From a virus, in IMG/VR virus record IMGVR_UViG_3300042879_004946, positions 44,458 to 108,457 of that record: DNA of 64,000 bases. One strand, 5' to 3'. Numbering within the stretch: the first letter of the stretch is position 1; each line of letters starts with the position of its first letter. A program made the translations under genes and the position numbers. A model generated the notes under the pieces. The model did no database searches and was not told where the DNA came from. It saw only the letters and a list, made by a program, of their open reading frames with translations. Below are positions 29,446-63,890 of this stretch, one piece after another.

Positions 29446-29709
29446 ATGGAGTTTAAAACACTAAAAGAACAATATATTGATTTGGTAACTGAAAAAGTAT
29501 CCATTAATAAAGAAGATCTTACAGAAACCGAATCCGCCATAATCGATATTGGTTACAATTTGTTGGTTGAAAAATTGGAAGATATAAAAATTCTAAAAGA
29601 TGAACTTCGTAGAATTTCCATTGATTTGGCTAACATGAAAGTTTTTAATGCAGATGTTAAAAATAAATATTGTGATGATTCCGATATCTTAGATGAAGAT
29701 TGTTTTTAA
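29446..29709 (+). CDS. Hypothetical protein
   Basis: ORF with an A-rich leader. Confidence 0.55.
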   Translation: MEFKTLKEQYIDLVTEKVSINKEDLTETESAIIDIGYNLLVEKLEDIKILKDELRRISIDLANMKVFNADVKNKYCDDSDILDEDCF

Positions 29710-30386
29710 ACAATTTGACTTAAAAACTTCCTAATGGAACGACGAATGACACCTTTCTCAATATTAGGAAAATTCTCTTGTAATTCAATAAATAATTTAT
29801 TTGTTAAATAACTTTTATTACCTTCGATGAAATAAGGTTTTTCATCTACAACAATATAGGGTTTATTATCATAGATATCTGGGATTGTTAATCTATTGAT
29901 TTCATAATTATCCTCCAAATAAGAAATAATTGGATCTTCGACCCTAAAAGGATCTCTTCTGGTAAGTTCAAAAGCCCAATCATATTCTTCAGATTCTTTT
30001 AAAAATGTTGTTTTAAAAAAAGGTTCTAAAACTTTTATAAGATGTAAATATTCGTCAGAAATTTGCATATTTGTTGCTGTTCTCGCAACGTGCTCAAGTT
30101 CACTTTTAATATTTTTAATATTGAAATCTCTTGCAAACCAAGTTTCATATGTTCCAAGATTATCACGAATATGATACATATCTTGTTCAGGGAAGTCTTC
30201 ATCTCTATCAACATCAACAATAAATTTGGATCCTATAAGTGGTTTTTTATCTTTTAAAAATTTATTTAACTCTGAATAAAGTAATTCTGCCTCACTTTTT
30301 GGGTTATCTTGGTAATATTTTATTATATGATAAACCCAATCATATTCTTCAGATTCTTTTAATATTTTACGGATTAAATTTTTCAT
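29706..30386 (-). CDS. Hypothetical protein with MKNLIRKILKE leader and duplicated LKESEEYDW
   Basis: Leader shared with the 27691 and 37080 genes; promoter motif at 30391-30399. Confidence 0.75.
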   Translation of the reverse strand: MKNLIRKILKESEEYDWVYHIIKYYQDNPKSEAELLYSELNKFLKDKKPLIGSKFIVDVDRDEDFPEQDMYHIRDNLGTYETWFARDFNIKNIKSELEHVARTATNMQISDEYLHLIKVLEPFFKTTFLKESEEYDWAFELTRRDPFRVEDPIISYLEDNYEINRLTIPDIYDNKPYIVVDEKPYFIEGNKSYLTNKLFIELQENFPNIEKGVIRRSIRKFLSQIV

Positions 30387-36603: not shown

Positions 36604-36769
36604 GTTGTCAACACCTTTCGTTTATGGGTCATCTCCAGCGCACAAGGCCAGGGGGCTCATCGCCCCTTGCTGTAAACACCTTTCGTTTATGGGTCATTTC
36701 CAGCGGTAAATTATGCCAGACTTATTGGTGTAAGCTGACAATACCTTTCGTTTATGGGTCATTTCCAGC
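36604..36769 (-). CRISPR. CRISPR-like mini-array: 3 repeats of 36 nt, 2 spacers of 29 nt
   Basis: Minus-strand repeats GCTGGARATGACCCATAAACGAAAGGTRTTKWCARC at 36734-36769, 36669-36704 and 36604-36639; spacers TTACACCAATAAGTCTGGCATAATTTACC and AAGGGGCGATGAGCCCCCTGGCCTTGTGC. Confidence 0.8.
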
Positions 36770-37080
36770 ATACGCATACATAAGTCTTTGATTTCTTGTT
36801 CATTAAGACCAAATTCTTGACGTAATTTTAACCAAATTTGACGATAATCAACTAATAAATAAGGTTTTTTTTTATCTCTATCCACACTATCCGCCATTAA
36901 AGTAACCCCACTTTTATCCTTATATAACATCAAACCTGGATAATTTTTTGAAGGAACCACCTTTAAGTTTGACATGATTTCATACAAAAATTCTTCAGCG
37001 GGGGAAAATTCTTTAATTTCCCCCACCCAATCAAAATCATCAAATTCTTCTCTCAATATTTTTCTTATAAGATTTTTCAT
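36694..37080 (-). CDS. Array-fused small protein B (paralog of 27691..28068)
   Basis: Shares FSPAEEFLYEIMSNLK, YKD.SGV.LMAD and VDY..IW.KL; reads through repeat 1 and spacer 1 and stops in repeat 2. Confidence 0.85.
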   Translation of the reverse strand: MKNLIRKILREEFDDFDWVGEIKEFSPAEEFLYEIMSNLKVVPSKNYPGLMLYKDKSGVTLMADSVDRDKKKPYLLVDYRQIWLKLRQEFGLNEQEIKDLCMRMLEMTHKRKVLSAYTNKSGIIYRWK

Positions 37081-37083
37081 ATT

Positions 37084-37623
37084 TTACATATAAGATTTTA
37101 TTTTATCAGAACCATAAATTTTTATTAATTTTTTAATAACTGACGCAGGATTTTTTCTCATATATTCAAGAGCTTGTGGTGGAATGTCTTCACCATATGG
37201 GCCAAAAATTGTTTTTAATTCCGATTCCCTTTGATAAGGTTCAAAACTAGATTTACGATATTTAGTTTCTTTTCTTTCTAGTTCTTTTTTTGGTGTTGCC
37301 TCATTTAATATTTTAACTACCAAGTTTTCAATATCGTTTTCGTTAAGTCTAATTATTTTACTCATTTTATTTTCTTTTAGGTTTTCCATTTTATCTTTTA
37401 AAAGTTTGATACGATTTTGTAATAACATTCTTGTACCATAAGTTGATTTACCACCTGGTGTGGCGTTACCAATCACTTTAATTTGATTTTCTATTTTAGA
37501 AATAGCTTTTTGTAAATCTTCTTTAGTTTTTAAACTTTCAACATAACCATGACTAAAGTCACTTGGTTGTATCCTACTTTTATCACCTATACGTGATGCT
37601 CTAGCCTCGTTAAGTTTTTTCAT
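37084..37623 (-). CDS. Hypothetical head-associated protein
   Basis: Follows the protease gene; internal IIRLNENDIENLVVKILNE is shared with 28186..28605. Confidence 0.65.
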   Translation of the reverse strand: MKKLNEARASRIGDKSRIQPSDFSHGYVESLKTKEDLQKAISKIENQIKVIGNATPGGKSTYGTRMLLQNRIKLLKDKMENLKENKMSKIIRLNENDIENLVVKILNEATPKKELERKETKYRKSSFEPYQRESELKTIFGPYGEDIPPQALEYMRKNPASVIKKLIKIYGSDKIKSYM

Positions 37624-38411
37624 TTTAAAAATTTATTTAAACTGTCAATTATTTTTTGACTTCTATTATTTGTAATGTCTGTAAAAGATACTGTCGTAGG
37701 TTTAATATCTTCCATTAAATTCCATTGGCAAGTATAACCGTTACAACCTTTTAATTGTGATTCAGTAAAAGTTTTTAAATCACCAGAATCGGTTGAAATC
37801 CAAGACCCTGGGGTTGATGGTGAGGTTACAATATCCCAACAGATTAATTCAAAATCATCTTGAACAACGTTTTTACCATCTTCTTGTTTTAAAGAACCAA
37901 CACCGCGAGAAGAGATACCAACAGTCCAACCTTTTCTAACCATATTTACTACTTTATCACCAACAGAACTAATAATACCAAGTTTATGATAACCTGGAGT
38001 GGTGTCAATTTCCATCTCACCCATCAAAGTCCTACCATCCCACCAAGTTTTTGTGATTCTATGTGAAACACGGTCAGCATCGATAACGGAGGCTTCCGGG
38101 TGATTTAATTCACCTAAAGAAGTTCCCATTTTAATATATTCTTGATATCTAATATTTTCTCTTTCTAAAATTTCTTTGGGGTAAATTCTACCGTTTTTGT
38201 TTTCCACGCCCCATTTTTGAAGTACGGCATACATGGTGATCACCTCTGGTAATGAACCGTCTTTACCGATATTAGTACCCGATTTAAATTCTCTAATTAA
38301 ATTTTTATTACTAATTCCTTTATACGATAAATCAAGTGAAGCATAACCTGCATCATATTCTACAAGTATACCTCTCCCTAATTCTCCTGGTTTTATTATT
38401 TTCATAAGCAT
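37620..38411 (-). CDS. Prohead protease (T4 gp21-like)
   Basis: NKNGRIYP, GELNHP, GISSRGVGS, WDIVTSPST. Confidence 0.92.
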   Translation of the reverse strand: MLMKIIKPGELGRGILVEYDAGYASLDLSYKGISNKNLIREFKSGTNIGKDGSLPEVITMYAVLQKWGVENKNGRIYPKEILERENIRYQEYIKMGTSLGELNHPEASVIDADRVSHRITKTWWDGRTLMGEMEIDTTPGYHKLGIISSVGDKVVNMVRKGWTVGISSRGVGSLKQEDGKNVVQDDFELICWDIVTSPSTPGSWISTDSGDLKTFTESQLKGCNGYTCQWNLMEDIKPTTVSFTDITNNRSQKIIDSLNKFLK

Positions 38412-40953: not shown

Positions 40954-43900
40954 TTAGGAATTTAATAATAATTCATCATCACCGTTTAAATCTTCATCTT
41001 GTTCATCAATTAAACCTTTAATACCTTCAATCATCATCATAATGTCTTCATTTTTACTGATACCTTCCATTAGTAATTTATCAATAATGCTTTTATTTTG
41101 GTTACGAAATCCCTCACCAAAACCTGTTTCAGTTCCTTGTGTTTCCCCACCACCTAATTCAGTTTCCCCACCTAATTCAGTTTCCCCACCTAATTCAGCC
41201 CCACCGCCGAAACCTCCGCCACCTAATTCAGCCCCACCGCCGAAACCTCCGCCACCTAATTCAGTTCCGCCACCAAAGCCACCAGCTTCAGCCCCAGTTT
41301 CAGTTCCACCGGCCCCAACATCTCCCGCGGCAGCTTCACCGCCTGTTGGTTTAATTTCACCATATATTTTATCAACACGAGTGAATAATCCACTATTTTT
41401 AATAACTTCAGCCGTACCTTCAAGTTCTTTAGTTGCGGCACGTTCCAATCTTTGACGTTCATCATCAACTTTAATTTCTTCGTCCGTCCAGTGGAAAATG
41501 TTTTTCTTTGCCCACATATGTGATGTTGGAGCAAAACCAGAATCAATTTGTGAAACTAAGTCCTTGTATAGGGTAACTTTTTCCTTCCATTGTTCAATCT
41601 TTAACATTTCACCCTGTGTTGATGGGTTTGTAAGGTTTAAAGAAAAATTATTTAAATCATCTGTTAACCCTAAAATATACAAATGTATGATTGCAATTTT
41701 ATTCAATTCCTGAATCATTGATTGTTGGATTTTATTAATAGTTCTGGCAAAACGAATGTCTAGCAAAGAAAGCGTCTTACCTTCGCCAACGGCTTCTTCA
41801 AAACCTAAAAAGGCTTTTGGTACCCTAAGAGCTGTTAATAATTTTTTCTGAATATACTCAATATCAGCAATATCACCCAAATTAGAGGCACCTGCCAAAG
41901 TATCTATTGGGTTTGGTGCGTTAGGGTCACGAACCGGAACAAAATAATCTTGGTCAACCGCTAAAGTATTGTAGCGTAAATCTACTTGCCCTGTTTTTTG
42001 GTCAACCAATTGTTGTCTTTTAAATTTATTTGCAACTTTTTGTACATATGCATCAACATCTTTATCATCTATATTACCAACATAAATTTTAAAAACACGT
42101 CTTTCTGGTGCTCTAACAACGCGATAAACTAACATCGCATCTTCGGATAACAAAAGTTGTTTCCAAATACGTCTTGCTTTTTCTAACATTGATGTTCCAT
42201 AAGGTAAACGTCTATCATCACCCAATAAACGGAAATGAGCAACCTCCCACGGGTTAAAATCCATTGCCTTTTCACGCCAACGAAATGTAACCTGTTTTGA
42301 TTTATTCGGCTCTTGGTTTAAATTACCTTCGGGTTTTGTCGGGAACAAACCTTCTTCTTTTCTCTCAATTTCAATATTGGTTAATTGTGATGAACCAATA
42401 ATTCCTTTTTTGTTATCTATTTTTAAAAAAACGAAATTATCACCATATTTACAGTTGGACAAAAACACCCCAGAATCCCTTGAAAACAAACCATTTACAT
42501 CCTTACCTAACACTGGAAAGTTATGTCTATCATGTTCTCCATTAGGCCCAACAGCTTCTAAACAATAGACATCCGATGTTTCATTTAATTTAACAACAGA
42601 AACAACTTTATGGTTTAATAAAGCTTTTTCTGTTGTTTTACCTAAATAAATTGATTTAGCTTTTATGTAATTTTTATCTAAAATGAGACTTGATTTAATT
42701 GACAACACAAAATCAAAATAATTCTGATTTGTTTTTCTATAAATAACCTTATTTAATGTTGTCGGGTTTATCGACTTAGTAATGTCTTTTTTTAATGTGT
42801 AATTTTGATTAAATAACTCAATGAATTCAGGATCGTATTTAAGTAATTCAGATAATTTATTAATACCGACATAATTTTCAGAATTTTTTATAATATTTGA
42901 AATATATGTTAAGCATTCATCAGTTATAGTTATAGTCATACCTTTTTTGGTTTTCTCTATGAACTTATCTGAAGACCAATTGGCTAACATTTTTTTAACA
43001 CGAATTTGATTGTGTTCTGAGTGTAAATCACTATGGTTATATTGTTCAAAATATTTAGGATAAATACCAGACATTTCTTTAGATAAACGTTCTTTTCGTT
43101 TATCTGACCTTAAATATTTATCAATACCTTCCATTCTTTTTTTAACAACTTCAGGAGACCCTAGTGTTTTATCAAAATGTTCTACATGTAGTTTAAAATG
43201 GTCTGAATGTGTTAGTCTAATTAAATTATTAGGATTGTTATTTAATTTATTGAAATCATTGTGATGTGTGTCAAACTGACCTCCAATAGATTTTTCATAT
43301 TCTAAATCCCTAACACACTCATGAGCAACTAAAGAATGTGTAAATTTATATTTACTAGAATTAGGGTTATACACTTTTTCATATCCCACAATGCGGTCTT
43401 TTTTCTTCTCACTTTTTCTAGTATAAAAAGGCATTAAGGATTGGCCAGATGTTAATTCATCGGCTCTTTTATAAGAACCGTCTCTAAGCATGTATTCATG
43501 GTCTGGTGTCGTATCAATATGTGTTCCATCGTCTAAGGTAACTCTTACTAATTCACTATTTTTTCTAGTTAGGTCACACCATATTATTTTACTAGGGACA
43601 ATAGCCTTTGTACCGTCTTGAATAGCGTACGACCATATTTCTTCACCAGATTTAACTCTATTTGAGAGTTCTTTAATAGTAATTTCGGTACCATCTAACA
43701 ATGGTATCATACTATTATCCCTAATAGGTGTGTTTCTAGTCCACATAGGTAAATTTGTTTGAATATCTAAAATATTGTAAAACAAATCTTGTAACACACT
43801 TTTAACTCTTTTAGAGTCAGAATGTATGGTTAAAATATAACCTTGTTCACTTGGGGTTGTTGCCTCTTCGGAGTAAATATCTAATGCAGCGGAGATTTCC

Positions 43901-45357
43901 GGAGTATTATGTGAAAATATTGTATCTGTTGCAAAGTTTTTATACCCTGGAACTGTTAAATCATAAACTGGCATAACACCATAAGGCTCAATAGATTTTA
44001 TTTTATGATTTATAATAACAGATTCTTCAACAGGTTTTTTTCTACCCGCTTGTCCTTTTGTGATACCATAGGCTTCAGTGAATACTGTCCAATTTTTAAA
44101 ACCACCTCTTTCAATCGATCTCATTAGTTTACCTGTGGTCACATTTAAAGTTTTAGCTGTTTTTTGTATTGTGTTACATTTTTCAGCAGTTTCAACTATT
44201 AAATCCCACGGTATTAAATTAAAGTTTAAGTTTTTACGATTTTCAGCACTAGACGGGTTGTATTTTTCAATATTATAAACATCTAAAAAATCCATCCAAT
44301 TTTTAAATCCATTAAATTTTAGTTCATTTTGAATTTTGTGTATAGAAACTTTAAGGTTTTTAGCGGTCAACTCAATTGTTTTATATTTTCTAGCCGTTTC
44401 AACTATTAAATCAAAAGATAATTCTAAGTAAGAAGGATTATTCCTACCAACTCTTTTACCATCCCAGTGAAATTTACCAACATTATTACGACTAACTTCT
44501 ATCATTTTTGCCCTATATTCAGGATTTGCCCACAATTTCTCATTGTTTAATCTAGCATGGTAAGCTCTATGTTCACTTCTGTCCATTATAACCAAATTTT
44601 CTGGGTTATTATTTTTTCCATTAAAATCTTTATGATGGACCTCTTCATTTTCATTTTTAGGTCTGTAAAACCATTCGGCAATTATATCATGTTCAGGAAC
44701 CCAACCATTTTTACCTGATCCTAATTTTGAATTACAGGTATAAATCCAGTTATAATTTTGGTTATTATAAAAAGATTTACGATAGAAAGGCATCATTGAG
44801 TCCCCTTCTTTTAGTTCTTCAACTTTAGCAAAAATACCATCACGTTTTAAAAATCTATGACCATATGTTGCAACAATAAATGAATCATCATCAAAAGTTA
44901 TTTTATATGTCATTTCATCTCTTGTATAATGAGCGTTTCTGGCTTTGGCAGGAACCACTTGTTTTAAATTGTGGTCGTAAGCGTAAGTTATAAATTCATA
45001 ATCTCTACCCTTATCGGCCAACTCTTTAATAGTGATAAAACCATCTGGAGTTGCTATTTTAGTATCACCAATTATTGAAAATTCCATGCCCTCATAATCC
45101 ATATAAGACGCAATTCTAGACGTTTCGTAGTAAACTGCCTTTTGATAAAGTTCACTATCAACTCTTGCCCATTGAGCCTCAAGATAACTTTGTTGTTGTA
45201 ATTCTAATTTTTGTTTACTATAATCTTCTTTAGATTGAAACGTTAAAAGTTCTTTATCATTAAAATTATATTTTGGTGGAGTTCGTAAACTGCCTTTATT
45301 TGGACCAAAAAGATAAAATAACTTTTGGTATATTGTTAAATCTTTATTATCTGCCAT
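40954..45357 (-). CDS. Portal protein (T4 gp20-like) with two inteins; ~651 aa after splicing
   Basis: PEISAALD, CKYGD, EDAMLVYRVVRAPERRVFKIYVG, QDYFVP, ALRVP. Confidence 0.93.
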   Translation of the reverse strand: MADNKDLTIYQKLFYLFGPNKGSLRTPPKYNFNDKELLTFQSKEDYSKQKLELQQQSYLEAQWARVDSELYQKAVYYETSRIASYMDYEGMEFSIIGDTKIATPDGFITIKELADKGRDYEFITYAYDHNLKQVVPAKARNAHYTRDEMTYKITFDDDSFIVATYGHRFLKRDGIFAKVEELKEGDSMMPFYRKSFYNNQNYNWIYTCNSKLGSGKNGWVPEHDIIAEWFYRPKNENEEVHHKDFNGKNNNPENLVIMDRSEHRAYHARLNNEKLWANPEYRAKMIEVSRNNVGKFHWDGKRVGRNNPSYLELSFDLIVETARKYKTIELTAKNLKVSIHKIQNELKFNGFKNWMDFLDVYNIEKYNPSSAENRKNLNFNLIPWDLIVETAEKCNTIQKTAKTLNVTTGKLMRSIERGGFKNWTVFTEAYGITKGQAGRKKPVEESVIINHKIKSIEPYGVMPVYDLTVPGYKNFATDTIFSHNTPEISAALDIYSEEATTPSEQGYILTIHSDSKRVKSVLQDLFYNILDIQTNLPMWTRNTPIRDNSMIPLLDGTEITIKELSNRVKSGEEIWSYAIQDGTKAIVPSKIIWCDLTRKNSELVRVTLDDGTHIDTTPDHEYMLRDGSYKRADELTSGQSLMPFYTRKSEKKKDRIVGYEKVYNPNSSKYKFTHSLVAHECVRDLEYEKSIGGQFDTHHNDFNKLNNNPNNLIRLTHSDHFKLHVEHFDKTLGSPEVVKKRMEGIDKYLRSDKRKERLSKEMSGIYPKYFEQYNHSDLHSEHNQIRVKKMLANWSSDKFIEKTKKGMTITITDECLTYISNIIKNSENYVGINKLSELLKYDPEFIELFNQNYTLKKDITKSINPTTLNKVIYRKTNQNYFDFVLSIKSSLILDKNYIKAKSIYLGKTTEKALLNHKVVSVVKLNETSDVYCLEAVGPNGEHDRHNFPVLGKDVNGLFSRDSGVFLSNCKYGDNFVFLKIDNKKGIIGSSQLTNIEIERKEEGLFPTKPEGNLNQEPNKSKQVTFRWREKAMDFNPWEVAHFRLLGDDRRLPYGTSMLEKARRIWKQLLLSEDAMLVYRVVRAPERRVFKIYVGNIDDKDVDAYVQKVANKFKRQQLVDQKTGQVDLRYNTLAVDQDYFVPVRDPNAPNPIDTLAGASNLGDIADIEYIQKKLLTALRVPKAFLGFEEAVGEGKTLSLLDIRFARTINKIQQSMIQELNKIAIIHLYILGLTDDLNNFSLNLTNPSTQGEMLKIEQWKEKVTLYKDLVSQIDSGFAPTSHMWAKKNIFHWTDEEIKVDDERQRLERAATKELEGTAEVIKNSGLFTRVDKIYGEIKPTGGEAAAGDVGAGGTETGAEAGGFGGGTELGGGGFGGGAELGGGGFGGGAELGGETELGGETELGGGETQGTETGFGEGFRNQNKSIIDKLLMEGISKNEDIMMMIEGIKGLIDEQDEDLNGDDELLLNS
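41140..41300 (-). repeat. Gly-rich tandem repeats in the portal C-terminal tail
   Basis: 33-bp (ELGGGGFGGGA) and 18-bp (ELGGET) units. Confidence 0.8.
42454..43728 (-). mobile_element. Portal intein 2, 425 aa, Pro-initiated (class 3-like), HNH endonuclease
   Basis: Extein WTRNT|PIRDNSMI..TTPDH..HHNDFNKLNN..DVYCLE..FLSN|CKYGD. Confidence 0.85.
43906..45078 (-). mobile_element. Portal intein 1, 391 aa, HNH endonuclease
   Basis: GMEF|SIIGDTKI..ATYGH..HHKDFNGKNN..VYDLTV..FSHN|TPEIS. Confidence 0.9.
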
Positions 45358-45420
45358 TATTATTTTTTTTTATATAAATATCAAAATTAAAAATAAATAA
45401 ATACTTGTAAATGTGAACTT

Positions 45421-61488: not shown

Positions 61489-61546
61489 TACTAAAACATT
61501 GGTTTTAAAGGGTTTTTAGCCACTTGTTGATATATGATAGTTATAG
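61489..61546 (+). other. attI-like primary recombination site
   Basis: GTTATAG at 61540-61546, 51 bp upstream of the integrase ATG. It is complementary to the left core of the first attC and has no hairpin arm of its own. Confidence 0.65.
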
Positions 61547-61879
61547 TGAATTTTGTTTCTTCCACTTATCTAATTCTTCTCGTGTTGGTGCCGAATATAT
61601 ATCTTCGTGTATATTATTGTAGTTTTTTAATTTACCAACATAAATACCCTTATCACCAGCATACATTATACCAACTTCATCTTCTGATAATTCTTTACCT
61701 AAATAATAGTGGAATGTTGGTAAATTAAAACCAACTTTCTTTAATTTTTTAGCAGATTTCTTATCAACTACATCACCAACAAAACTCACTATAACATCAG
61801 ATATATTCAATTTTTTCTTTGAATTTTCTGTAAGGAAGTTCCTAAAGTTGTCAATGTGTTCTCTCATTTCTTTGCTCAT
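61541..61879 (-). CDS. Cassette 1 ORF (starts in the attC1 loop)
   Basis: MSKEMREHID..LTE..NISDV; the stop TAA is the TTA of the 61540 core. Confidence 0.8.
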   Translation of the reverse strand: MSKEMREHIDNFRNFLTENSKKKLNISDVIVSFVGDVVDKKSAKKLKKVGFNLPTFHYYLGKELSEDEVGIMYAGDKGIYVGKLKNYNNIHEDIYSAPTREELDKWKKQNSL

Positions 61880-61945
61880 AATTTTATTTTATATATAAAT
61901 ATTGAAAATTCAGAAAAAACTAAATATATCTGAGTATCGTTAGTG
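61789..61945 (+). other. attC-like site 1
   Basis: CTATAAC-A-TCAGATATATT..AATATATCTGA-GTATC-GTTAGTG. Confidence 0.75.
61894..61902 (-). promoter_or_regulatory. ATATTTATA motif inside the attC1 loop
   Basis: 14 bp upstream of ATG 61879. Confidence 0.6.
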
Positions 61946-61951
61946 ATAATT

Positions 61952-62173
61952 TTATTTTGAATATTTGTGTTTGAACCATTTTTCAAATTCTTCTAACAAT
62001 TCTTCTTCATTATAAGGTTGATTACTAATACTTGTGAAAGCATAGTGTGAAAATGCTTCAAACAAGTCTTTTTTAGTAAAACTATCACTAACATCAGATA
62101 TATTCAAGTTTTCTGATTCAGTTAGTTTAAACTTGTTAAATTTGTCTATGTGTTGTCTCATTTCTTTGCTCAT
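61952..62173 (-). CDS. Cassette 2 ORF (starts in the attC2 loop)
   Basis: MSKEMRQHID..LTE..NISDV. Confidence 0.8.
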   Translation of the reverse strand: MSKEMRQHIDKFNKFKLTESENLNISDVSDSFTKKDLFEAFSHYAFTSISNQPYNEEELLEEFEKWFKHKYSK

Positions 62174-62230
62174 AATTTTGTTTTATATATAAATATCAGA
62201 AAACCTAAATATATCTGAGAAACGTTAGGT
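62086..62230 (+). other. attC-like site 2
   Basis: CACTAAC-A-TCAGATATATT..AATATATCTGA-GAAAC-GTTAGGT. Confidence 0.75.
62188..62196 (-). promoter_or_regulatory. ATATTTATA motif inside the attC2 loop
   Basis: 14 bp upstream of ATG 62173. Confidence 0.6.
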
Positions 62231-62271
62231 GCAATAAAAAATAAATTTCCCACCGCACCCTACCATCAACA

Positions 62272-62583
62272 TTAGTCCTCAAATTCAAAATATTCATCCT
62301 GTGCTGGAATAATCTTTCCATAAATAGGTTCTGACTTATTCCATTTACCATCAACACAACTGTAAATGATTTTCACAGCCCTTTCATCGTGATAAGGCGG
62401 CAATCCTCCAGTTCTTGAAAATTGTGAAGTTTGAGTGTAAATCATTTCGATTGTTTCTCCTACCTCATTTACCTCTTTGAATACCATTGGATTCCATAAT
62501 CCACCGTGTGCCGTTGTTCCGCTTGCAATCGTTGATGTCATTGCACCTGAAGCTGTGTTTGTTTTAATGTTTAATGTTTCCAT
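62272..62583 (-). CDS. Cassette 3 ORF, hypothetical
   Basis: Single ORF between cores 62224 and 62634. Confidence 0.75.
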   Translation of the reverse strand: METLNIKTNTASGAMTSTIASGTTAHGGLWNPMVFKEVNEVGETIEMIYTQTSQFSRTGGLPPYHDERAVKIIYSCVDGKWNKSEPIYGKIIPAQDEYFEFED

Positions 62584-62633
62584 TTTCGTGTTATTTAAAA
62601 TTTAAGCCCACGCTAAATTTATTTTTTACAGAC

Positions 62634-62731
62634 ACCTAACAGCAGGTAGGCAAAATGCCGCTATGAGCCTGAGTGCTTTGATTTAAAATTTGTGGTAAGC
62701 GGCACTATCGCCTACCTGCAAAACGTTAGGC
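62634..62731 (+). other. attC-like site 3 (98 bp)
   Basis: ACCTAAC-A-GCAGGTAGGC..TGCCGCT..AGCGGCA..GCCTACCTGC-AAAAC-GTTAGGC; canonical RYYYAAC/GTTRRRY. Confidence 0.85.
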
Positions 62732-62736
62732 ACAAT

Positions 62737-62985
62737 TTATGAAATGGTAATAGGTTTTACTATAACCGTTGCGCCATAACTTGCAAAATCAGTTGCACTA
62801 TATGTACCATCTTTTCGTTCTCTAAGTTCTGTATCTTTATGAAAGAACCTTGTTTTGATATAATTAGTTGCAACTGATTTTGCTTCATCTAAATCAAACT
62901 TATAACCTAATTCTTCAAACACCATTTCATCTGAGTCTCTGGTCGTGTCTGCCAAATTTCGCTCTGTGTAAATTCTATATGCCAT
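62737..62985 (-). CDS. Cassette 4 ORF, hypothetical
   Basis: Fills the cassette almost exactly. Confidence 0.75.
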   Translation of the reverse strand: MAYRIYTERNLADTTRDSDEMVFEELGYKFDLDEAKSVATNYIKTRFFHKDTELRERKDGTYSATDFASYGATVIVKPITIS

Positions 62986-62995
62986 AATAAACTGT

Positions 62996-63119
62996 GCCTA
63001 ACAAAGTGTATAAGCAATAGCCGTTAGGCATTTTAAACTATTGCAGTTGTTAATATTTAATTTTCTACTTCTAATTAAGTTTTGTGTTCGGCTACTGCTC
63101 ATACACTCAACCGTTATGT
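62996..63119 (+). other. attC-like site 4 (124 bp)
   Basis: GCCTAAC-AA-AGTGTATAAGCAATAGCCG..CGGCTACTGCTCATACACT-CAACC-GTTATGT. Confidence 0.85.
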
Positions 63120-63134
63120 TTAATTTTAAAAATT

Positions 63135-63503
63135 TTATGATTGTTTTATACAAAACTTATCATTTAATTCTTTTGACCATTCTTGTAACGAACCCATATT
63201 GCTATCAACCCTTACCCAATCACCATAAGTTTTGTGTTCCCAATAAATAGAACCATCATATTTTTCATTGTATAAAAACTTACTTTCATTGTCTTGTTTT
63301 TCATTCCAAGTTTCACCATCATTTATCATAAAAGTAATTTTCTCACCTTGTTTAAGTTTTGAAATAATATCTTTTATAGAATATCCTTCTCTGTTAATTG
63401 CTAAATTAACTTTATTTACATTATTGTAATCAAAATCATATTCAAAACTTAAACCACTATCAAGTAAGTTTTTTATTTCTATTTCTGCTTTTTTTGTTTC
63501 CAT
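63135..63503 (-). CDS. Cassette 5 ORF, hypothetical (122 aa)
   Basis: ATG 63503 (METKK) is preferred; the longer call runs through attC5. Confidence 0.7.
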   Translation of the reverse strand: METKKAEIEIKNLLDSGLSFEYDFDYNNVNKVNLAINREGYSIKDIISKLKQGEKITFMINDGETWNEKQDNESKFLYNEKYDGSIYWEHKTYGDWVRVDSNMGSLQEWSKELNDKFCIKQS

Positions 63504-63542
63504 ATATTTATTTTTTATTTGTATAAAATTTTTAAAACTAAA

Positions 63543-63596
63543 ACATAACAACAAATAAAACACATTAAAACGATGTTTTATTTGCAACCGTTATGT
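63543..63596 (+). other. attC-like site 5 (54 bp)
   Basis: ACATAAC-AA-CAAATAAAACA..TGTTTTATTTG-CAACC-GTTATGT. Confidence 0.8.
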
Positions 63597-63830
63597 GTAA
63601 TGATTTATAACAATATCACAAAGAATTTTAGAAGTAGTCTTTATATCTTCCACTTGTTTATTTATAAATTCATCTTTAGTAATTATACCTTTCATCAATT
63701 CTTTATGAATTAACGTTATATAAAAATTGTGTCTAATTAATTCCTTTTCGAAATCACTACACATAACATCAGATATATGTAATTTTTTATCTGTGTTATC
63801 AACTTCTGTGTTATTATTTACTTCTTCCAT
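63591..63830 (-). CDS. Cassette 6 ORF (starts in the attC6 loop)
   Basis: ..KKLHISDVM..; the stop TAA is the TTA of core 63590. Confidence 0.75.
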   Translation of the reverse strand: MEEVNNNTEVDNTDKKLHISDVMCSDFEKELIRHNFYITLIHKELMKGIITKDEFINKQVEDIKTTSKILCDIVINHYT

Positions 63831-63890
63831 ATTATTTAAGTTTTATGTTTCAATTTAAGAAAAAACTACATATATCTGTGACCGTTATAT
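63761..63890 (+). other. attC-like site 6
   Basis: ACATAAC-AT-CAGATATATGTA..TACATATATCTG-TGACC-GTTATAT. Confidence 0.75.

Follow-up and report, generated by a model that had tools for sequence, protein, structure and literature searches.

Integrons have been reported in phages (PMC9892861), in an account that mentions neither Flavobacteria nor Cellulophaga. According to the available text of the respective reports, promoters occur within the cassettes of chromosomal integrons (PMC11014356, PMC6557892), and inverted cassettes can carry promoters of their own (PMC13108822). Two questions about integron cassettes form the background here: how they acquire their recombination sites, and how they are expressed when they lie far from, or face away from, the platform promoter. 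Modular designs have also been described in T4-type phages. The internal proteins of T-even phages are diverse defense proteins that have only a capsid targeting sequence in common (PMC3012670), and T4-type phages shuffle ORFans by way of promoter and stem-loop (PeSL) cassettes, with mini-circles and without a known recombinase (PMC2839356, PMC4122927). In the available portions of the literature on phage integrons, in-cassette promoters, inverted cassettes, and PeSL, we encountered no recombination hairpin in which promoter, start codon, and leader are all encoded.

The locus described here has such a design: a putative recombination hairpin that carries a promoter-like motif, a start codon, and a swappable N-terminal leader, and that recurs in approximately 60 other uncultured phage contigs. 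The window (the whole 64,000-nt stretch of DNA analyzed) covers the final 64 kb of an IMG/VR contig of 108 kb, for which CheckV gives a completeness of approximately 33%. The source is a giant, T4-like phage of Flavobacteria; its T4-like genes include a gp23-type major head protein and a portal with HNH inserts, and Flavobacterium myoviruses are among the best matches to its large terminase. The hairpin family is named here for the LNISDV peptide read across one of its arms, and we consider it likely that these hairpins serve both as recombination site and as expression module, in a phage-borne integron-like system run by an Xer-type recombinase.

At least six one-gene units lie to the right of the recombinase gene, every ORF being on the minus strand and directed toward the recombinase; the contig end interrupts the array (Table 1). 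On the minus strand, cassettes 1 and 2 consist of an outer core (TAAC), a 5-nt spacer, the 5′ arm, ATATTTATA, a further 14 nt, the ATG and leader, the 3′ arm with the inner core (GTTA), and the cargo, with LNISDV read across arm and inner core in both frames. The leaders and promoter regions of these two cassettes are 90% identical over 67 nt and their cargos are unrelated; similarly, the cassette 2 hairpin is 96% identical to one in L023, whose cargo differs. The beginning of cassette 1 and the flank of that cassette's inner core are complementary. Cassette 6 also starts within its loop and reads LHISDV followed by M, with a different leader and without ATATTTAT. A prior sequence-only reading of this DNA had proposed the loop motif, the ATG 14 nt further on, and the near-identical leader in cassettes 1 and 2, the passage of the frame through hairpin arm and core (ISDV) into unrelated cargo, and the in-loop start, differing leader, and missing motif of cassette 6; each of these holds, at the positions it had given.

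Cassettes 3–5 belong to other hairpin families, and their ORFs begin downstream of the hairpin, outside the loop. The sequence CTTAAATT, which occurs only six times in the window, precedes the ATG of cassette 3 by 15 nt and that of cassette 6 by 21 nt (62599–62606 and 63852–63859, respectively, both minus strand), and may represent a second, cassette-specific promoter class. The cassette 4 hairpin (window 62994–63116) is 83% identical to L001:4001–4122, an intergenic hairpin of Cellulophaga phage phi18:3 (KC821620). This phage is cultured, and its hairpin is likewise part of an array of small ORFs on the minus strand, next to a 428-aa tyrosine recombinase. The phi18:3 array was considered as evidence for the 266-aa recombinase family of the window and set aside, its recombinase being only distantly related (27% identity over 162 aa).

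Table 1. Positions of the cassette array and associated phage genes, numbered from the first nucleotide of the window
Feature	Positions	Strand	Details
MK..LI..IL.E ORF	27691
MK..LI..IL.E ORF	29706-30386	(-)
MK..LI..IL.E ORF	35818
MK..LI..IL.E ORF	36694-37080	(-)	a further five lie upstream of the window on the same contig
T4 gp21-type prohead protease (Peptidase_S77)	37620..38411	(-)	99.7 bits, above cut-off; ATATTTAT 9 nt upstream
Portal gene	40954-45357		promoter-like motif upstream at 45373..45381 (-)
Xer-type tyrosine recombinase, 266 aa	60688..61488	(-)	Pfam Phage_integrase + SAM_4; proximal end of array
attI-like junction	61489..61543	(-)	closing TAAC core of cassette 1, then TAT.ATATAT box, 51 nt upstream of recombinase ATG
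Cassette 1 (cargo and own hairpin)	61541..61939	(-)	ORF 61541-61879; stop is the TAA of the attI-side core
Cassette 1, LNISDV-type hairpin	61789..61945	(-)	outer core 61939-61942; inner core 61792-61795; arms 61797-61818 and 61912-61933
Cassette 1, loop content		(-)	ATATTTATA 61894-61902; ATG 61877-61879, 14 nt further on; 29-aa leader 61793-61879
Cassette 2	61940..62224	(-)	ORF 61952-62173; 45-aa cargo, found elsewhere with other leaders
Cassette 2, LNISDV-type hairpin	62086..62231	(-)	outer core 62224-62227; inner core 62089-62092; arms 62094-62117 and 62195-62218
Cassette 2, loop content		(-)	motif 62188-62196; ATG 62171-62173; 28-aa leader 62090-62173
Cassettes 3-5	62225..63590	(-)	other hairpin families, about 62636-62733, 62990-63120, 63530-63595
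Cassette 6	63591..63884	(-)	ORF 63591-63830; class D leader; hairpin 63764-63887, arms 63770-63788 and 63860-63878

Among NCBIfam models the best match of the recombinase is XerA, below cut-off. It aligns continuously and end to end with archaeal XerA (4a8e), and matches the integron-integrase model TIGR02249 in two pieces, with 158 bits against a cut-off of 265. Compared with VchIntIA (2a3v), it has 34 residues where IntIA has 82 (approximately 48 fewer), at the site of the IntI-specific domain. An integron in the IntegronFinder sense has an integrase with this domain; since it is missing here, the recombinase does not qualify as an IntI, and the system is best called integron-like and not an integron. 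Homologs of the recombinase (44–86% identity) were found in 24 loci, always downstream of, and co-directional with, cassette ORFs within the flanks fetched.

On the recombinase side, the array ends in a core and a TAT.ATATAT box without a hairpin; this pair is conserved 48–55 nt upstream of the recombinase start in most of 17 aligned loci (window 61530–61543 and 16 related). Because this attI-like core lacks a hairpin, each hairpin belongs with the cargo proximal to it. No ATATTTAT motif was found at the junction or upstream of the recombinase. Between cassettes and recombinase the gene strand has no terminator-like site, no T-run terminator was found, and transcription of the cassettes may possibly read through into the recombinase gene. 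We propose that this recombinase acts on the LNISDV-type hairpins.

The wider distribution of the hairpin was assessed with a gapped pattern for both arms, followed by filtering, which yielded 70 distinct sites from 61 sources; a plain 15-mer scan returned mostly chance matches and was filtered for the partner arm. Beyond cassettes 1, 2, and 6, the pattern scan recovered 67 further LNISDV-type sites in 60 other viral contigs (4–318 kb). All 70 sites have an in-loop ATG that is in frame with LNISDV and open into a cargo of 40–241 aa, whereas the remaining two frames are stop-free in only 3/70 and 0/70 sites. The predicted in-loop gene start is confirmed by these counts as general to the hairpin family, in excess of chance. 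The cargos are nearly all mutually unrelated (six similar pairs), and a scan of 68 cassette proteins against Pfam and PHROGs matched no family apart from one recombinase fusion; as the cargos match no family, nothing in them points to a virion role. Paired CxxC motifs occur in several cargos (L030, L098, L099, L170, P0029), which suggests that some of these are small zinc-ribbon proteins. Among the remaining ORFs of the 108-kb contig, a regular expression for the class A leader found none beyond cassettes 1 and 2.

The motif in the class A loops is one that also precedes genes elsewhere in the window. In an unbiased count, ATATTTAT was the most gene-start-specific 8-mer of the window, with 15 of 29 sites lying 0–40 nt upstream of a same-strand start, as opposed to 2 of 27 for its reverse complement; the 9-mer ATATTTATA occurs 15 times in the window, compared with 6.0 ± 2.2 times in shuffled sequence. 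ATATTTAT precedes the portal, terminase, and prohead protease genes, and in each of the eight class A loops its distance to the ATG is 15 nt. In class B loops the motif is TAATATATA, for which 32 of 71 occurrences outside hairpins in related loci precede ORFs. Class C and D loops contain TTAAATT-type sequences or none, and 8/70 loops have no recognized motif at all. A scan for sigma-70 promoters remained at background (27 vs. 22 ± 4.4). In some genes the motif lies merely 4–6 nt from the ATG, so that a promoter reading would require leaderless mRNAs there. It had been claimed that the loop carries the phage promoter; the motif of the structural genes is indeed present at a fixed distance in class A, but cassette 6 lacks ATATTTAT, and the loop motifs are promoter-like by position only.

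Evidence that the leader is more than a by-product of the hairpin comes from its codons. Among 26 unique class B leaders, Phe is invariant and is encoded by TTT in 13 and TTC in 13; the neighboring Glu is GAG in 13 and GAA in 11, and Ile is ATA in 17 and ATT in 5. Since the amino acids are constant while the codons vary, DNA structure alone is not a sufficient explanation, and the pattern indicates that the leader is translated and under protein-level selection. The earlier proposal that the loop supplies a translation start and an N-terminal leader is borne out by these synonymous changes and by the open frame throughout the family.

A hydrophobic-x-Glu motif stands 6–13 residues before the Val in 50/70 leaders, including 43 of the 46 whose loops have ATATTTAT or TAATATATA and only 7 of the 24 whose loops have neither, counts that are not independent because leaders within a class are homologous. 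The motif is absent from 12 of 16 TTAAATT loops, the group that includes the cassette 6 leader type. Leaders of classes A and E have it in the strict form L-x-E, and those of class B as F-x-E; the description of an LxE-containing leader is therefore apt for classes A and E, and in its looser hydrophobic form for most of the family, but fails for 17 of the 24 loops with neither promoter-like motif.

It could be argued that the leader has no peptide function beyond starting translation, the ORF being obliged to begin upstream of the structured arm, and that its conservation reflects ancestry and DNA constraints. The 17 leaders just mentioned, which lack hydrophobic-x-Glu, include class D, and are hydrophilic, would fit this explanation, as would the tolerance of one cargo for many leaders and a predicted structure in which the leader forms a separate, low-confidence helix followed by a linker. 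Its conserved Phe, Glu, and Ile, however, vary at synonymous positions only, the leader survives loss of the hairpin (L182) and occurs outside loops, and the leader of P0010 resembles a type found on nine ORFs of the phage genome, some of them otherwise unrelated. On balance we regard a functionless leader as unlikely, and favor a translated and selected one.

The hairpin also shows signs of selection. Ten stem columns that the search pattern left free are paired in 61–70 of the 70 sites, with compensatory changes in five; in one example, an Asn-to-His codon change is matched by a T-to-G change in the opposite arm. One G.T wobble, present on the sense strand only, is retained in 66/70 sites, where a synonymous Leu codon could have provided a Watson–Crick pair. 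The sense (minus) strand folds more stably than the plus strand in all four hairpins folded (e.g., −21.8 vs. −17.7 kcal/mol; for cassette 2, −17.1 vs. −12.8 kcal/mol), and each of the four has a one-sided bulge of 4–5 nt beside the outer core. These patterns indicate that the hairpin is under selection, and that this selection acts on the sense strand.

Comparison with other loci delimits the unit that moves. Between cassette 6 and a cassette in L138, 299 nt are shared at 92% identity: the block begins at the outer core, takes in hairpin, leader, and cargo, and stops at the next core, with different flanks on either side. The ends of most cassettes are also complementary: in 60/68, the 12 bases that follow the inner core match the 12 ahead of that cassette's closing core at 9 or more positions (the average for shuffled partners is 5.2 of 12), and in 18 of these 60 cassettes the stop codon of the ORF is the TAA of the closing core. 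From these boundaries, hairpin, leader, and cargo are read as a single mobile cassette; with leader and cargo within one cassette, ordinary exchange at the outer core makes no fusion. The opposite polarity, in which the hairpin would travel with the distal cargo, was rejected on the strength of the cassette 6/L138 block and the hairpin-free attI side.

Across all 68 complete LNISDV cassettes, the complementarity of cassette ends peaks at 11/12 and reaches 12/12 in none, which implies one conserved mismatch in the extended stem. Cassette 5 (window 63108–63602) is 99.4% identical over 495 nt to L150:8872–9366. In L150 its place is upstream, not downstream, of a class D hairpin, and the array order differs; its presence in a changed order at this level of identity suggests recent cassette movement.

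A separate mode of exchange is apparent from the 45-aa cargo of cassette 2. No relative was recovered in the scan of viral contigs; a metagenome scan returned L181–L183, and metagenomic relatives are 62–85% identical as whole proteins and 81–86% identical in their cargo parts (two loci read as DNA). At least six types of leader precede this single cargo: A (window), B (P0002, P0005, and others), D (L181, P0013), F (P0011), a long leader (P0003), and a MK..LR..LIREE type (P0010), with DNA identity beginning at the arm/core. In L182, 12 nt of the arm/core and the 5′ arm have been lost, while the promoter-like motif and leader are retained. Ten further proteins have a MSKEMR-type leader behind the same motif without LNISDV, and at least three of these (L132, L023, L157) lie shortly after the inner core of a hairpin from another family. 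L182 and the MSKEMR leaders outside LNISDV loops indicate that the promoter-leader is a module in its own right, which is housed in the loop in the LNISDV family. As judged from these junctions, modules have been swapped between cargos over evolutionary time. The sequence-only reading had tied promoter and leader to the attC loop; they do reside in the loops of class A, but the MSKEMR type also follows its motif outside hairpin loops.

These swaps raise the question of whether the hairpin is strictly a fusion device, in which recombination joins a resident promoter-leader to captured, start-less DNA, leader and cargo belonging to different mobile units. The many leaders of the cassette 2 cargo, with their joins at arm/core, are what such a device would produce, and the inner-core frame is identical in 70/70 sites, so that swaps stay in frame; a leader fused to the catalytic half of a recombinase (L174) and two cargos joined through a second LNISDV element (P0008) can be read in the same way. 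Against this, the unit shared by cassette 6 and L138 includes leader as well as cargo between its outer cores, the recombinase end of the array has an attI-like core but no hairpin, so that the hairpin pairs with the proximal cargo, and homologous recombination over the approximately 20–35 conserved bases also explains the swaps. We consider a strict fusion device very unlikely. Of the original proposal that the hairpin is a fusion module, the portability of the leader between cargos stands, whereas routine fusion does not.

The two unusual proteins merit separate description. In L174:5844–6566 (minus strand), an LNISDV-type leader continues in frame, via approximately 55 residues of unrelated sequence, into the catalytic C-terminal half of the recombinase, and takes the place of the N-terminal SAM-like domain; its origin may lie in the decay of a platform or in a secondary-site event involving the inner core. 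In P0008 (108 aa), a cassette 2-type cargo reads in frame through another ...SLNISDV element to a further cargo, and the two appear to be cassettes fused through loss of a stop codon.

A PeSL-like regulatory cassette, in which the hairpin would be an RNA or terminator element beside a promoter, shuffling would proceed by general homologous recombination, and the recombinase would be incidental, has a precedent in the T4-type phages cited above and would accommodate both the sense-strand wobbles (which would be G.U pairs in RNA) and the location of module-swap junctions in conserved sequence, but seems very unlikely given that recombinase homologs down to 44% identity keep their position and orientation in 24 loci, that unit boundaries fall exactly at the TAAC/GTTA cores, that every cassette has its own complementary ends beyond these cores, and that a loop of 75–95 nt holding the promoter is not terminator-like, no T-run terminator having been found.

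Under the preferred reading, that of a combined recombination site and expression module, gene-sense single-stranded DNA would fold into a stem of 25–30 bp closed by the TAAC/GTTA core pair, with the 4–5 nt bulge beside the outer core, and this hairpin would be the recombination site of the cassette. Because the cassette genes point toward the recombinase, the reverse of classical integrons, no platform promoter can serve them. Each cassette would instead keep its expression module in the loop, comprising the promoter-like motif, a short untranslated stretch, the ATG, and a leader of 20–29 aa. Transcription would begin within the loop and yield an mRNA without the 5′ arm; translation would then cross the 3′ arm and inner core as (E)NLNISDV, proceed through the next 2–3 codons into the cargo, and usually end at or just before the next TAAC core. 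The whole cassette (hairpin, leader, and cargo) would move together, outer-core exchange making no fusion. As arm and core are near-identical among classes and always in the same frame, a rare exchange there, whether homologous or in the form of an inner-core crossover, would re-tag a cargo with another promoter-leader.

In T4, the prohead protease of the gp21 family cuts after (L/I)-x-E, and the phage encodes a protease of this family (Table 1). Capsid targeting of the cassette products is thus a plausible function for the leader. Nine ORFs of the genome have a common MK..LI..IL.E N-terminus; some of them are paralogs and some have unrelated continuations. Four of the nine have ATATTTAT no more than 35 nt from the ATG, and they may be regarded as candidates for a like leader function. 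In P0010, the leader that resembles this type is joined via an LNISDV element to the cassette 2 cargo. AlphaFold models the cassette 2 protein as a helical leader joined by a flexible linker to a cargo of two helices, with low confidence (pLDDT 67). We put forward tentatively, as a possibility somewhat short of probable, that the leader is a cleavable propeptide resembling the T4 capsid targeting sequence, and that processing by the gp21-type protease would take class A and B products into the head. It is more doubtful that any ORF behind an LNISDV-type hairpin would acquire a phage-class promoter and a cleavable propeptide, be loaded into the head, and be injected with the DNA, the array being a self-diversifying arsenal of injected proteins that would probably act against host defenses. 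If this were true, a swap of hairpin class would re-time or re-route the same protein.

Several consequences follow for the study of cassette systems. In the LNISDV family, site and expression signals would form one exchangeable piece of DNA, which offers a concrete model of how cassettes are assembled and re-tagged. The family would bring together a dedicated recombinase and the kind of design, a leader on variable cargo, that T4 internal proteins exemplify, and would make several hundred small uncharacterized proteins candidates for virion-delivered factors. A module of approximately 125–150 bp that contains a promoter-like motif, start codon, leader, and recombination site is also a potential portable part for loading proteins into phage heads.

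The system can be placed by comparison with those already described. Its resemblance to PeSL lies in a promoter and stem-loop module that flanks ORFans in plastic genome regions of T4-type phages and allows modular shuffling (PMC2839356, PMC4122927); PeSL, however, is an early promoter of sigma-70 type followed by a terminator stem-loop between genes, without start codon, leader, core sites, or recombinase, whereas here the stem encloses the promoter-like motif and coding sequence. With T4 internal proteins and the ip locus, which is polymorphic among T-even phages (PMC3012670, citing Repoila 1994), it shares a short conserved leader on unrelated small proteins, an encoded gp21-type prohead protease, and, in many but not all of the leaders, a hydrophobic-x-Glu motif at the end. 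It differs in that the leader DNA is inside a hairpin recombination site beside a dedicated recombinase; the likeness, known here from sequence, is one of design rather than of demonstrated leader homology.

The closest parallel is with integrons. Both have an array of one-gene units beside a tyrosine recombinase with a simple attI-like site, and identical cassettes in different orders and genomes. As in integron attC sites, each unit has an imperfect hairpin with inverse cores (...AAC/GTT..., corresponding to R″/R′, of which R′ is the crossover site in integrons), unit boundaries fall at the core, and one strand folds better; TAAC and GTTA close every putative site of the family, and homology blocks end at the cores. 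Classical attC sites have two extrahelical bases in the L box and a central spacer; the hairpins as folded here show a 4–5 nt bulge beside the outer core and conserved G.T wobbles instead, and cassette-specific pairing extends approximately 12 nt beyond the cores. Cassette ORFs in integrons lead away from the integrase and are expressed from Pc, whereas all ORFs here, in the window and the 24 recombinase loci, run toward an Xer-like recombinase. Cassettes with internal promoters and inverted cassettes with their own promoter, as presented in the available text on them, are likewise expressed independently of a platform promoter. In those cassettes the promoter belongs to the cassette, as far as that text describes; in the phage, the promoter-like motif, start codon, and first 20–29 codons of the gene lie within the hairpin loop, and the arm and core of the recombination site are themselves translated.
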